Shown here: positions 47,251-51,365 of the stretch, piece by piece
How the letters are laid out: each line of letters starts with the position of its first letter
Numbering within the stretch: position 1 is the stretch's first letter
NCBI GenBank assembly: GCA_014728035.1
Contig: WJMJ01000059.1
Coordinates: forward strand, 224,001 to 288,000
DNA length: 64,000 nucleotides
Source: Promethearchaeota archaeon
GTDB lineage: Archaea > Asgardarchaeota > Thorarchaeia > Thorarchaeales > Thorarchaeaceae
Direction of reading: 5' to 3'
Notes under the pieces: generated by a model
Databases searched by the model: none
Seen by the model: the letters and a program-made list of their open reading frames with translations, nothing else
What the model was told of the DNA's origin: nothing
Translations under genes and position numbers: made by a program

Positions 47251-47389
47251 GATGGTGATTAGAGAAACATCCTATTTGAGTATGTTTGGATGTATATAAT
47301 GAAAAGGGGGGAGCTATTCGGAATTGTTTTTTATGTTCCTGACATATAGGATTACTTAGACCGTATTTCAAAGACGGGGTGAAATGAAA

Positions 47390-47770
47390 ATGAGCGACCC
47401 AGTAATGGATGCATATACTCAAGCATACGAGGCATCTGGTCAGATGGTCCAAGCGTTTGGAGTCATCACGACAGGTGGACAGGTACTATGGCAAAGCGAT
47501 AACTGGGACCTTACTGCTGATGCCCAATCCCTAGCCGGTGCTGTTGGAAAGGGTGTTGCCAGTGTTACACAAAATGAGGTCAAATATAGTACCATTCGAT
47601 CAAGCCCAGAGAGCCTAGTTGCTCGAAGTGTTTCTGGAAATGGAACTCTAGTACTTGCCAAGATTGAAGATGGGAAGTTTGTGATTGCATGGGCTTCTCC
47701 TGATGCGGCTCCTGACGGCGTCTATGTAGATGTTGATCGTGCCGCAAAAGCACTGAAAGGCAAGGTTTAG
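47390..47770 (+). CDS. Asgard-type profilin (copy 1)
   Basis: GQVLWQSDNWDL...VKYSTIRSSPESLVA...GNGTLVL resembles Loki profilin QTENW...IKYMIVE...GKGHVL (recalled, not searched); GGGGTGA SD. Confidence 0.82.
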   Translation: MSDPVMDAYTQAYEASGQMVQAFGVITTGGQVLWQSDNWDLTADAQSLAGAVGKGVASVTQNEVKYSTIRSSPESLVARSVSGNGTLVLAKIEDGKFVIAWASPDAAPDGVYVDVDRAAKALKGKV

Positions 47771-47787
47771 TTGAATATATTCGGAAC

Positions 47788-47818
47788 AGGACATGGGCCA
47801 GGAAATATGCCCTGTCCT
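47788..47818 (+). terminator. Intergenic hairpin between the two profilin genes
   Basis: AGGACA-T-GGGC / GCCC-TGTCCT with a 10-nt loop, starting 18 nt after the stop. Confidence 0.5.
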
Positions 47819-47852
47819 CTCCAAGGTTTTTGATTCGTTGGTGAATTGGATA

Positions 47853-48227
47853 ATGGATGATATAATAAATCAAGAATGGCAGTATCTCTATTCATACAAT
47901 CCTAAGATTAAGGCATTTTGTGTCTGTAAAGGCTCTGAAGTCATTTGGCAGACATCTAATTGGGATCTTGTTTCAGATGCGCCAACAATAATACGTGCTC
48001 CACGTGAAAGTGCTCAAAAAGTTGTGGTAAATGGAGTAACGTATAATCGTGTAGACTCAAATGCTGAACGCTATATTGCATCAGCAACTGGAGATCAGGG
48101 TCATCTAATTGTGGCTCTAATTGAACTTGATAATTGGGCGATAGCTTGGGCAACTTCTGATGCTGTTCCTGAGCTGGCAGGTATTGATCTGGCTTATTCC
48201 GCAATACAACTTGTTGGAAATCTATAG
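47853..48227 (+). CDS. Asgard-type profilin (copy 2)
   Basis: VIWQTSNWDL, VNGVTY, GDQGHLIV, IAWATSDA.P align with copy 1; ATG 47853 behind GGTGA. Confidence 0.8.
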   Translation: MDDIINQEWQYLYSYNPKIKAFCVCKGSEVIWQTSNWDLVSDAPTIIRAPRESAQKVVVNGVTYNRVDSNAERYIASATGDQGHLIVALIELDNWAIAWATSDAVPELAGIDLAYSAIQLVGNL

Positions 48228-48303
48228 AATCTTTACTCAACTTTCAAAAGTAATTGGTTCTATTTTCTATAAAGAGTATCAGTTAATTCAGGTCGGAAAT
48301 TGT

Positions 48304-49194
48304 ATGCGCGAAACAACCCACGATGATGTAAAAGAATTATACAAGAAAGGTATTCAGTATGAACGATTTGGCGAGCTTAATGCCGCAGAAGAGGTTCTAC
48401 AAAATGCTGTAGCAATCGATGAACAATTTTCTGATGTTTGGAACTTGCTTGGAATTGTGTATAAAAAGAAGAGAGACATTGAAAAATCTAGACATGCATT
48501 GAAAAAAGCGGGGTCTCTCGATCCAGATTGGGCTGAACCTTGGATGCATCTGGGACTATTAGAACTCGATAATCATCAATTTGAAGATGCGATTTCCGCA
48601 CTGGAAAAGTACGTTAGCTTAGGAGGGGATGATACACACGTATTGATTCGTTTAAGTAGGACGTATAGTGATAGGAACGATTGCGAATCAGTCATCAGAA
48701 TAACAAAGAAAATTTTGAAACTTGAGCCAAATAATACTGAAGCTTGGTCATTACGTGGTTTGTGTGAAAAGAAACTCTCTCTAGAAGACGAAGCCCTCGA
48801 AAGTCTGAGCAAATCCTTGGAATTGAAATCCAATCAAGTTACTGTTCTTGACGCTATAGGCGCGATTTATTATGATCGTGGAGACTTCGAGAAATCGTTA
48901 GAGTATTACGGTCCAAGTCTAGAGATTGAGCCAATTAATGTGCCAGTTCTTTTCAGATACGGTACATCTCTGTGGTTTACAGGTGATTGGCAGAGGGCCT
49001 TGGACTATTTGCAAAAATATGTAGAATTATCTCCAGATGATGCAAAAGGATGGAATAATCTTGGTGTGGCATATCGAGAAAAGGGGGAAGTGAAACGAGC
49101 TTTGGAGTGTTTTAAGAGAGCTATAAATCTAGCTCCAAATATGGAAACCGCACAAAGTAATCTTGATATGGGCACCAAACATGCGCTTCCGTAG
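48304..49194 (+). CDS. TPR-repeat protein
   Basis: About 8 34-aa repeats, e.g. WNLLGIVY, WNNLGVAY...ALECFKRAINLAP. Confidence 0.92.
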   Translation: MRETTHDDVKELYKKGIQYERFGELNAAEEVLQNAVAIDEQFSDVWNLLGIVYKKKRDIEKSRHALKKAGSLDPDWAEPWMHLGLLELDNHQFEDAISALEKYVSLGGDDTHVLIRLSRTYSDRNDCESVIRITKKILKLEPNNTEAWSLRGLCEKKLSLEDEALESLSKSLELKSNQVTVLDAIGAIYYDRGDFEKSLEYYGPSLEIEPINVPVLFRYGTSLWFTGDWQRALDYLQKYVELSPDDAKGWNNLGVAYREKGEVKRALECFKRAINLAPNMETAQSNLDMGTKHALP

Positions 49195-49198
49195 CCTG

Positions 49199-49954
49199 TT
49201 ATCCAAATATTATCTCGCGCATTCTTTGTTGAATCTCTTGAAACTCTGATAACCCACTAGCTCGAAGTCTTACTAACCAATCATACAGCTTTAGAGCTTT
49301 TTCGTCTGCAACATCTCCCTTTACCATTTTGATGATTGGTCTTCTATTATCAAAATAGATTTCATCGGTTTTGACTAATAGTTCTACAAGTTCGCTCTCT
49401 TTCTCTTCAGAGAGTTTAATTCCGAATACTTTTTCCAATCTTTCAATACTGGCCTTTGCGCTCTTGACTATTTCTGCCCTTTTCTGTGTGCTGTGAACTG
49501 TGACAACAAACCCTTTTGCAGTTCTTCGATAATAGTGTGTTGTACGTTTTCCAGTTTCAACCTTACCGTATTCTATGATATATCCCGCATCGATTAATTT
49601 TGGTAAATGATGATAGACCTGATTCTTGGTAATCTCTTCTACTCCTTCAAGGACCTCAGACTGATTCACAATCTCTACTACCGATAAGGCATATCGTTGT
49701 ATTTTTTTCACTCTGATAATTCGTTCCCCAGTTTCTTCATTGAACTCCTCTGTGGTTTGAGTGTCTTCTTTTCCTTTTCGTAGGATTTTAATGATACTCA
49801 ATCTTACTGGATCATCCAGCATTTGTGCTCGCTCGTCATCTTGCACAAATTCAATCTCTTTCATCTCCTTTTTTCCTTCTTCAGTAAGTTCAATTTCCTT
49901 TAGTGTGTCTGTGAGATTATCACTCATTGTTTGATCTTCCATATTCCTTTTCAC
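49199..49954 (-). CDS. ArsR-like winged-helix transcriptional regulator
   Basis: LDDPVRLSIIKIL, LSVVEI, ITKNQVYHHLPKLIDAGYI, YYRRTAK; start uncertain (49954, 49942 or 49927). Confidence 0.88.
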   Translation of the reverse strand: MKRNMEDQTMSDNLTDTLKEIELTEEGKKEMKEIEFVQDDERAQMLDDPVRLSIIKILRKGKEDTQTTEEFNEETGERIIRVKKIQRYALSVVEIVNQSEVLEGVEEITKNQVYHHLPKLIDAGYIIEYGKVETGKRTTHYYRRTAKGFVVTVHSTQKRAEIVKSAKASIERLEKVFGIKLSEEKESELVELLVKTDEIYFDNRRPIIKMVKGDVADEKALKLYDWLVRLRASGLSEFQEIQQRMREIIFG

Positions 49955-49982
49955 ACATACATCTTATGATTTTCCATATTAA

Positions 49983-50100
49983 AGTTTTGTTAACCAAACC
50001 ATTTTTAGACAAATACTTTATAATTTTTAGTTTGTAAAGCAAACCTTTATATTGATTTGAGTATACACTATAATTGTAAGATGGTTTGTTTTACAAACCA
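49983..50100. promoter_or_regulatory. Divergent promoter region with three copies of a 19-bp palindromic operator TGGTTTGT-N3-ACAAACCA
   Basis: 49983-50001 (13/16 match), 50028-50046 (13/16), 50082-50100 (16/16); TATA-like TTTATAT at 50046-50052 (+) and TTTAATAT at 49976-49983 (-). Confidence 0.8.
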
Positions 50101-50112
50101 AGGTGATTAACA

Positions 50113-50214
50113 ATGGCAGAAACAAAACAACAAGACTGCGATACCAAGAAGGAAATCCACGCAAAGGCCCCAAAGGCATTGGCGTTGTATCATGCATATA
50201 AATATCGGAGGTAA
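50113..50214 (+). CDS. Small basic peptide 1 (33 aa, MAETKQQDCDTKKEIHAKAPKALALYHAYKYRR)
   Basis: AGGTGA SD at 50101-50106; downstream of TATA and operator; similar to the next ORF. Confidence 0.65.
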   Translation: MAETKQQDCDTKKEIHAKAPKALALYHAYKYRR

Positions 50215-50219
50215 ATCTA

Positions 50220-50306
50220 ATGGCTCAAGAGAAAAATAAGACTGATAGAAAGATTCGAAGAGACATTTCGACTAAAGCAATCGGTTACTCATATCAATAC
50301 AGGTAG
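50220..50306 (+). CDS. Small basic peptide 2 (28 aa, MAQEKNKTDRKIRRDISTKAIGYSYQYR)
   Basis: GGAGGT SD at 50207-50212; shares MAxxK start and KA...YxYR end with peptide 1. Confidence 0.62.
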   Translation: MAQEKNKTDRKIRRDISTKAIGYSYQYR

Positions 50307-50432
50307 ATGAAGATGACAATTAGTCAAGATTCCCATAGATCTGGTTTGAGTGAGCCTTGCCAGCAATCTGTTGAAAAACAGAATTGTCGAAATCTCAATT
50401 GTGATGAAGTGCTCATGCTGGAATGCACATGA
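50307..50432 (+). CDS. Possible third small ORF (41 aa, 4 Cys)
   Basis: ATG directly after the peptide 2 stop, second ATG at 50313; no similarity to the other two. Confidence 0.25.
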   Translation: MKMTISQDSHRSGLSEPCQQSVEKQNCRNLNCDEVLMLECT

Positions 50433-50437
50433 GCACT
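50408..50437. terminator. 10-bp hairpin between convergent units
   Basis: AGTGCTCATG / CATGAGCACT with a 10-nt loop, followed by T-rich sequence. Confidence 0.6.
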
Positions 50438-50443
50438 CACCAT

Positions 50444-51241
50444 TTATTTTTTAAAAACTAACTGATAGAAAGTTCCATTATAGATATAATCAACCTCCAC
50501 ATCTTTTGCTTTTTCAGGTATTTGTTCGAGAGGTGGTTTTGCTGCAAATAACGCGTTTGCCTCAACAATTGCCTTACCTCTATCAGTCCCTCGTACCTTT
50601 GGTGATAGACCTTCGTCAATTACTAGAATTGTCCCCTCCGGTTTTGCTACACGTAACATCTCCTTCAGTGCTTCCGAGATGTCTGAGAAAGTGTTAATTC
50701 CACCTGTATGAATGACTAAATCAAACTGGCTTTTTCTAAAAGGCATGTTGAATACACTTGCGTGAAGTAAAGCTACTGGAAGTTTTAGTTGGTTCATTTT
50801 ACTTTTTGAAACCTGTAACATCCCTGTGGACAAATCAATTCCATACAAATCAAATCTAGGTTCATTCTTTCTTATATGTGGTGCTAGAGCCTCAAAATTG
50901 GCAGCAGTACCTATACATACATCAAGTATCGAAACCGAACTCTTTTTCGGGATGAATTTTAGCAAATCTTCTCTTCCACTGGAAATGTCCGCTCCTAGAA
51001 AATCATCGTATTGTTTAACAAGGTCATCATATTTTGGAGCGAGCTCATCATATTCATCTATCCATCTCTTATCTTCTTCAGAGATTGGTGGATATACACA
51101 CGAAAGAATCTCTCCTTCCATATTCCAGACATGTCCTTTCTTGCATGCTATTTCAGCATCAATAAGTTCTGTGTTTGGAGGTATAATGATTTGATTCTTG
51201 CATTTCGGGCATCTTAGTTTCTTCAACATATTCGATTTCAT
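50444..51241 (-). CDS. Class I SAM methyltransferase with N-terminal Trm112-like Zn motif
   Basis: LRCPKC...CKKGH, ILDVCIGTA, GIDLS.GML, MPF...FDLV, EMLRVAKPEG. Confidence 0.88.
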   Translation of the reverse strand: MKSNMLKKLRCPKCKNQIIIPPNTELIDAEIACKKGHVWNMEGEILSCVYPPISEEDKRWIDEYDELAPKYDDLVKQYDDFLGADISSGREDLLKFIPKKSSVSILDVCIGTAANFEALAPHIRKNEPRFDLYGIDLSTGMLQVSKSKMNQLKLPVALLHASVFNMPFRKSQFDLVIHTGGINTFSDISEALKEMLRVAKPEGTILVIDEGLSPKVRGTDRGKAIVEANALFAAKPPLEQIPEKAKDVEVDYIYNGTFYQLVFKK

Positions 51242-51365
51242 TTCTCTACGTCCTAGGTCATGATATCCTATCATTATAGTATTCTTTAGTAGTATATGCA
51301 TTGGAGCAGATATATTGGAGGTCAACTTTGAAATATAATGTCTGTGAATCATACCAACAATGAAC

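Follow-up and report, generated by a model that had tools for sequence, protein, structure and literature searches.

We identified a predicted operon of three microprotein genes, Y1-Y2-Z, in the window (the 64,000-nucleotide stretch of a Thorarchaeota genome analysed here), and comparison with related genomes indicates that it is maintained by selection and adjoins its own predicted DNA-binding regulator. The operon appears to belong to a multi-copy microprotein family with hundreds of members which, among the genomes sampled, is confined to the Thorarchaeota (Asgard archaea), and which is undescribed in the literature and databases searched. Its products would be two basic microproteins of 28-35 residues, each with a C-terminal helix rich in Tyr, and an acidic one of ~39 residues. 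The Thorarchaeota, uncultured relatives of the eukaryotic ancestor, have annotated proteomes from which genes this small are absent: gene callers miss what appear to be hundreds of microprotein genes kept by selection, with conserved promoters, predicted operators and terminators, and several of the few family proteins that have been called are mis-called with TAG as Gln. The copy in the window is the paralogue that lies with its regulator, and hence the best entry point for experiments.

The two Y genes lie on the forward strand. Y1 (50113-50214, 33 aa, basic with a net charge of +4, stop TAA) is preceded by an SD-like site, AGGTGAT, at 50100-50106 on the same strand, and its paralogue Y2 (50220-50306, 28 aa, net charge +5, stop TAG) by CGGAGGT, which is made up of CGG-AGG, the last two Arg codons of Y1. 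A preliminary description of this DNA, made from its letters and open reading frames, had reported both ORFs, and their coordinates, translations and SD-like sites are exactly as it gave them. The MAxxK start, basic N-terminal half and KA(L/I)..Y..YxYR end that it saw in both peptides are real, and the likeness of their 3' DNA is present as well. It had added the caveat that the terminal Arg codons double as the SD of the following ORF and might explain part of the shared ending. This caveat was borne out: the R/RR codons at the end serve largely as the SD for the cistron that follows (CGGAGGT, AGGAGA, AGGTAG), and therefore only the Y motif proper, S-T-x-A-I/L-x-Y-A/S-Y-x-Y, counts as free evidence of selection on the peptide. 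Y1 and Y2 carry no signal sequences and, judged by their sequences and those of their relatives, are conserved, real genes that arose as tandem paralogues.

Directly behind the Y2 TAG, and in the same frame as Y2, lies a third ORF, Z, which is absent from the preliminary description and forms part of the unit in most relatives. It occupies positions 50313-50432 of the forward strand, encodes 39 aa if started at the ATG at 50313 and 41 aa if started at 50307, is acidic (net charge -3) and ends in EVLMLECT. All three peptides are strongly hydrophilic and rich in N, K, R, S and T; with GRAVY values of -0.4 to -1.5, and opposite charges on the basic Y peptides and the acidic Z, they would be soluble. 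The three cistrons are probably chained in translation, with the terminal Arg codon and stop of one serving as the SD of the next.

To follow the cassette through other genomes we used the regulator as the anchor, as it is independent of the peptides, in 24 related genomes of the same family and then in public genomes. Most of the 19 relatives fetched carry one to three small ORFs on the divergent side of the regulator, ending in A-I/L-x-Y-A/S-Y-x-Y-R(R), and behind these an ORF of ~39 codons ending in EVLxW/LEAT was present in 14 of the first 20 loci. The scan of public genomes added 55 regulator loci, mostly from Candidatus Thorarchaeota, 51 of them usable, and the same divergent cassette was found at 43 of the 51, nearly always with Z. 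The check that the preliminary description had proposed, a search for small ORFs beside orthologous regulators, therefore came out in favour of its ORFs, whose recurrence there is, by these counts, far beyond chance. Across 146 distinct copies of the Y motif, the invariant Ala uses all four of its codons (third-position entropy of 1.7 bits), eleven codons occur at the Ile/Leu position, and the Ser is written both as TCN and as AGY. As the copies were picked by their motif, the evidence from the first two positions of each codon is partly circular; that from the third positions, which are free to vary, is not circular, and neither is the anchor-based recovery of cassettes. The codon tables show selection on amino acids and not on nucleotides.

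A hairpin terminator, overlapping the 3' end of the Z coding sequence, would end the operon. A terminator-like hairpin with a T-run extends over 50408-50449 on the forward strand, with a 10-bp stem at 50408-50437 and a fold of -19.6 kcal/mol (z -3.8); the stop codon of Z sits in its 3' arm, and the last eight codons of Z are hairpin as well as coding sequence. Across 46 loci, 81% of cells are paired, compared with 27-46% when the partner is slid, and compensatory changes are seen (Leu/Trp UUG-UGG versus Ala GCA-GCC; GCG/ACG versus AUG/ACA). RNAalifold returned no consensus for the Z ends because a few loci shift the hairpin, which was nonetheless revealed by counting of a stated structure. At three loci (L010, L014 and L015) the hairpin is made from other sequence and the Z peptide motif is retained despite this, so it seems that constraints on the peptide and on the hairpin both act; the ~30 variable codons of Z upstream of the last eight are open in every locus. 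We regard the hairpin as a covarying, terminator-like element that closes the predicted operon. The locus thus shows small ORFs, SD sites and terminator overprinted on one another.

The stop codons of the cassette are also biased. TAG ends Y2 in 44 of 61 distinct cassettes (genome share 32%) and TGA ends Z in 50 of the 61 (genome share 29%), and in 47 of them the two genes share a reading frame. The shared frame follows from the fixed spacing between SD and ATG, AGG-TAG plus 6 nt. The in-frame TAG between Y2 and Z might allow an additional, low-level read-through fusion product. Decoding of this TAG as pyrrolysine was rejected, as the window's own genome has no pylB and its best hit to TIGR03910 scores 25.7 bits against a cut-off of 348. 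Databases also hold apparent natural Y2-Z fusions of 68-90 residues. The two that we checked (P0030 and P0056) translate only if TAG is read as Q and come from contigs shorter than 2 kb, and are therefore gene-caller artefacts. More generally, very short contigs on which the junction is called as Gln give rise to spurious proteins (L065, L121, P0030, P0031, P0044 and P0046-P0061), and in one such public gene call the stop codon of Z is decoded too. Calls of TAG as Gln are a trap when databases are mined for recoded archaea.

The regulator gene lies on the reverse strand at 49199-49954, divergent from the operon, and encodes a predicted ArsR/PadR-like winged-helix protein of 251 aa. It matches PF03551 PadR with an E-value of 4e-6 and 27.1 bits, just at the cut-off of 27, and HTH_20, HTH_5 and HTH_34 below their cut-offs. 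Among solved structures PH1932 comes closest (1ULY; E 8.5e-4, residues 100-248), and this match together with that to PadR supports a winged helix-turn-helix domain. The regulator aligns with the ArsR-like archaeal PH1932 of Pyrococcus horikoshii (1ULY, 2CWE) in the winged helix and in the helical C-terminal region, and more loosely resembles regulators of the PadR family. A further point of resemblance is a palindromic site, a predicted operator recognised as a sequence motif, in the regulator's own promoter. Unlike PH1932, the regulator has ~90 extra acidic residues at its N-terminus. To the best of our knowledge, no microprotein cargo has been described for PH1932. The regulator is single-copy in its own genome and was found in 23 of the 24 related genomes of the family.

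Three operator-like palindromes stand between the two transcription units, as the preliminary description had stated, two of them exact and one imperfect. Site 1 (49985-49999) has one mismatch to GTTTG-N5-CAAAC on the minus strand; site 2 (50030-50044) is exact and lies between two divergent TATA-like boxes; and site 3 (50084-50098), also exact, comes just before the SD of Y1. Read from the sequence, the likely TATA-like box of the operon is at 50045-50054 and a second candidate at 50065-50075, both on the forward strand. The start site expected for the operon falls within site 3 and that for the regulator gene within site 1, a layout that suggests repression of the operon and autorepression by the regulator. 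The motif is exact upstream of 31 of 70 regulators and present with at most one mismatch upstream of 52 of 70, as against 3 of 70 control regions. The earlier proposal that the Y ORFs are the cargo of a promoter shared with the divergent wHTH regulator also holds, since the pairing is kept across the Thorarchaeota.

In the own genome as a whole, nine copies of the exact motif are present, and they are paired at only three places: in the window, at C8:60447/60494 before a Y-like ORF and an MFS-like gene, and before a DUF362 gene. The C8 locus (L122 1948-2833 = C8:60447-61334) holds two window-type operators, of which the one at C8:60447 is a 21-nt site identical to site 2, and directly downstream of them a second palindrome, GTCACA-N3-TGTGAC, with the promoter shared with other cassettes. 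Its Y-like ORF has 36 codons and ends in YYEYYRRLN, and the MFS-like gene that follows is cut by the contig end. At the DUF362 gene (L125 2424-2466 = C151:99423-99466) the paired sites flank a TATA-like box. In a sister genome, too, paired sites occur in this three-locus pattern, DUF362 included; in two further genomes single operator sites lie inside a Y-Y-MFS locus (G004) and beside another Y cassette (G015). Genome-wide counts of the operator pattern did not exceed those of a reversed-pattern control, and the evidence that links the regulator to these genes is therefore the placement of the sites and not their number.

Six-frame translation and searches with Y and Z HMMs recovered four more Y1-Y2-Z cassettes in the own genome, 86-96% identical to each other in DNA and ~46-50% identical to that of the window. 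They are dispersed among unrelated genes (PolX, luciferase-like, DsrE, TruB/Cbf5, DsbD and methyltransferase) and have in common a promoter region of ~100 nt with the other palindrome, GTCACA-N3-TGTGAC, which is exact in 25 of 43 loci. In the own genome this palindrome also precedes the MFS-like locus, a bactofilin-domain gene and the gene of a 290-residue membrane protein. The bactofilin-domain protein (L124 841-2073, contig C16) has 411 aa and matches PF04519 with E 1.8e-8, and the membrane protein (L123 737-1606, contig C10) has no Pfam match; both genes stand behind a GTAACA-N3-TGTGAC palindrome and a TATA box, as at the dispersed cassettes.

The Y profile matches 21 of the 24 related genomes, with 1 to 12 matches per genome. 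A phylum-wide sample gave matches in 67 of 76 genomes of this family and in none of the 224 that represent 29 other Asgard families. In 9 genomes, spread over 8 genera, one paralogue keeps its place behind PolX, and such stable synteny indicates old chromosomal genes and not mobile DNA. The greater likeness of copies within a genome than of syntenic orthologues points to homogenisation. Several contigs end inside or just after a cassette (L031, L032, L041, L055 and L059, in G004, G015, G010 and G021); near-identical copies would break assemblies, and copy numbers per genome are therefore lower bounds. There are also Y-only loci without Z, and at some loci Y-type ORFs come directly before MFS genes, with predicted Y-Y-MFS operons in other genera. 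The window copy is the regulator-linked paralogue, other members of the family being without an adjacent regulator.

The preliminary description had not recognised the system, and indeed no described family matches it in Pfam, NCBIfam, a PDB profile search, protein libraries or the literature. Neither Pfam nor NCBIfam gave a match at E-values up to 10, whether for the three peptides singly or for 23 and 14 family members, and a PDB profile search with the Y alignment gave none at E 10. A possible resemblance between ribosomal protein eL29 and the MA-SKN start of the peptides was dropped for want of support, the PDB profile search being empty. The ESM Atlas held no usable match to the peptides, Rfam returned only a chance miRNA match for 49800-50600, and our search for literature on the motifs and on small ORFs of Thorarchaeota found nothing relevant. 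Libraries of 5.8 and 1.8 billion proteins contain 44 representatives of Y and 2 of Z, the latter being the only called Z proteins in the 5.8 billion, and none is named where names are given. AF2, for which natural in-frame read-through fusions served as input, models the conserved C-terminal motifs as short helices (block mean pLDDT ~91 for Y2 and 76 for Z). The models of the fusions consist of isolated helices only, with pTM of 0.25-0.33, and lend no support to a compact Y/Z complex or fold.

We propose that Y1, Y2 and Z are trans-acting microproteins of a repressor-controlled, efflux-linked response, a function to which we attach roughly even confidence. The regulator would most likely repress both its own gene and the operon through the three GTTTG-N5-CAAAC sites, and as the same sites precede the Y-like ORF and MFS-like gene at C8, the microproteins may be switched on together with an efflux-type response. 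They would act as small soluble binding proteins and not as precursors for modification, and given their opposite charges Y1, Y2 and Z could form a complex. Action in trans and not in cis is argued by the convergent orientation of the next gene and by the stand-alone copies among unrelated genes. Against it, conservation falls directly before the stop codons, as would be expected of arrest peptides too, and some paralogues are in predicted co-transcription with an MFS gene, which suits leader or exported peptides. Signalling or anti-repressor roles, raised in the preliminary description, are possible. A bolder version, in which these Thorarchaeota-specific, multi-copy, tripartite microproteins feed back on their own repressor and together with the MFS pump and the bactofilin-domain protein make up a lineage-wide small-protein response, is speculative and unlikely.

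The peptides might instead be sensors that act in cis, their C-terminal residues arresting the ribosome at termination in the manner of SpeFL or TnaC; a ribosome held at the Z stop, in the 3' arm of the hairpin, would then prevent termination and let transcription continue. We consider this unlikely. Conservation does centre on the final ~12 residues together with the stop codon, the stops of Y2 and Z are biased as described, the Z stop lies inside the hairpin, and some Y-type ORFs lie immediately upstream of MFS genes. SpeFL and TnaC of E. coli are likewise peptides of ~34 residues with a variable N-terminal half, a conserved aromatic-rich C-terminus and Arg at the stop codon. Both sit directly upstream of the operon that they regulate. 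The window copy, in contrast, has no co-oriented gene downstream: the next gene is convergent there and at two other copies of the own genome, which leaves no gene to regulate, and a short ORF upstream of and co-oriented with a regulated gene is found only in the MFS-linked paralogues. The three chained ORFs and the four to six stand-alone copies per genome also fit such a role poorly, and the SD that the next cistron uses accounts for some of the conservation at the C-terminus.

A second alternative is that the peptides are exported or autoregulatory, like the phenol-soluble modulins with Pmt and PmtR or the leaderless multi-peptide bacteriocins, so that a co-regulated transporter would pump them out and they might release the repressor from DNA. 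In its favour, tandem paralogues of 20-40 residues without signal peptides, and a repressor linked to the peptide genes and to a transporter, are also found in psm-alpha/Pmt/PmtR of Staphylococcus aureus; both the regulator's operator and the shared cassette promoter precede the Y-like ORF and MFS-like gene, and the Y-Y-MFS operons predicted in other genera fit as well. However, the peptides of Thorarchaeota are hydrophilic and charged, neither amphipathic nor hydrophobic, their transporter is MFS-like and not ABC, and they have no homology to the modulins. MFS pumps rarely transport peptides of 30 residues. The leaderless bacteriocins aureocin A70, enterocin L50 and garvicin KS are likewise polycistronic, paralogous, cationic peptides of ~30 residues. 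These are hydrophobic and Trp-rich, with dedicated ABC export and immunity genes. Y1-Y2-Z differs in its several chromosomal copies and in having no export or immunity gene in the window, where an adjacent ABC exporter is also lacking, the MFS-like gene with both operators being elsewhere in the genome. Neither type of system has anything that corresponds to the acidic third peptide. We consider export an unlikely reading of the cassette.

A toxin-antitoxin-like module, in which basic Y peptides inhibit growth and acidic Z neutralises them, would account for the opposite charges, the tightly operator-controlled promoters (as predicted) and the multi-copy, lineage-specific cassettes with their variable number of matches per genome, but is highly improbable in view of the stable syntenic positions across genera, which are not those of mobile DNA, the Y-only loci without Z, and the lack of a known toxin fold or DNA-binding antitoxin (no Pfam or NCBIfam match for any of the three peptides at E-values up to 10, and no DNA-binding domain in the 39-residue Z).

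The preliminary description had also thought of RiPP-like precursors and had named the neighbouring methyltransferase and GNAT as candidate modifiers. We find it very unlikely that the Y peptides are precursors of RiPPs or peptide cofactors, with a Tyr-rich core that the methyltransferase or GNAT would tailor. In favour of this reading, several precursor-like genes stand in tandem and share a conserved C-terminal 'core', and a class I methyltransferase adjoins the cassette in 48 loci. In the window, however, this gene (50444-51352) is on the opposite strand, convergent with the operon and followed by the GNAT, and it is conserved no better than profilin, which is adjacent in 64 loci; GNAT is adjacent in only 6. 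With an adjacency about as frequent as that of profilin, the methyltransferase is there by plain synteny. Among the 164 neighbours of 43 cassettes (classes including PolX, URO-D, MFS, EamA, flavodoxin, GNAT, hydrolase, DsrE and TruB) no radical SAM, YcaO, ATP-grasp, lanthionine or protease gene recurs, and there is no RRE-like partner, so that neither the suggested precursors nor their modifiers withstood comparison.

The methyltransferase begins with a Cys-rich, zinc-ribbon-like segment and has weak matches to the 23S rRNA G745 methyltransferase RlmA (NF008300, E 9e-6) and to UbiE-type models. On the other side of the regulator, two tandem profilin-like genes occupy 47384-48227, the first of which matches PF00235 with E 0.0012. 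A profilin homologue stands beside the regulator in 64 of ~75 Thorarchaeota loci, which makes profilin, regulator, cassette and methyltransferase a deeply conserved block. The TPR gene at 48160-49194 is an insertion seen only in this and a few other genera.
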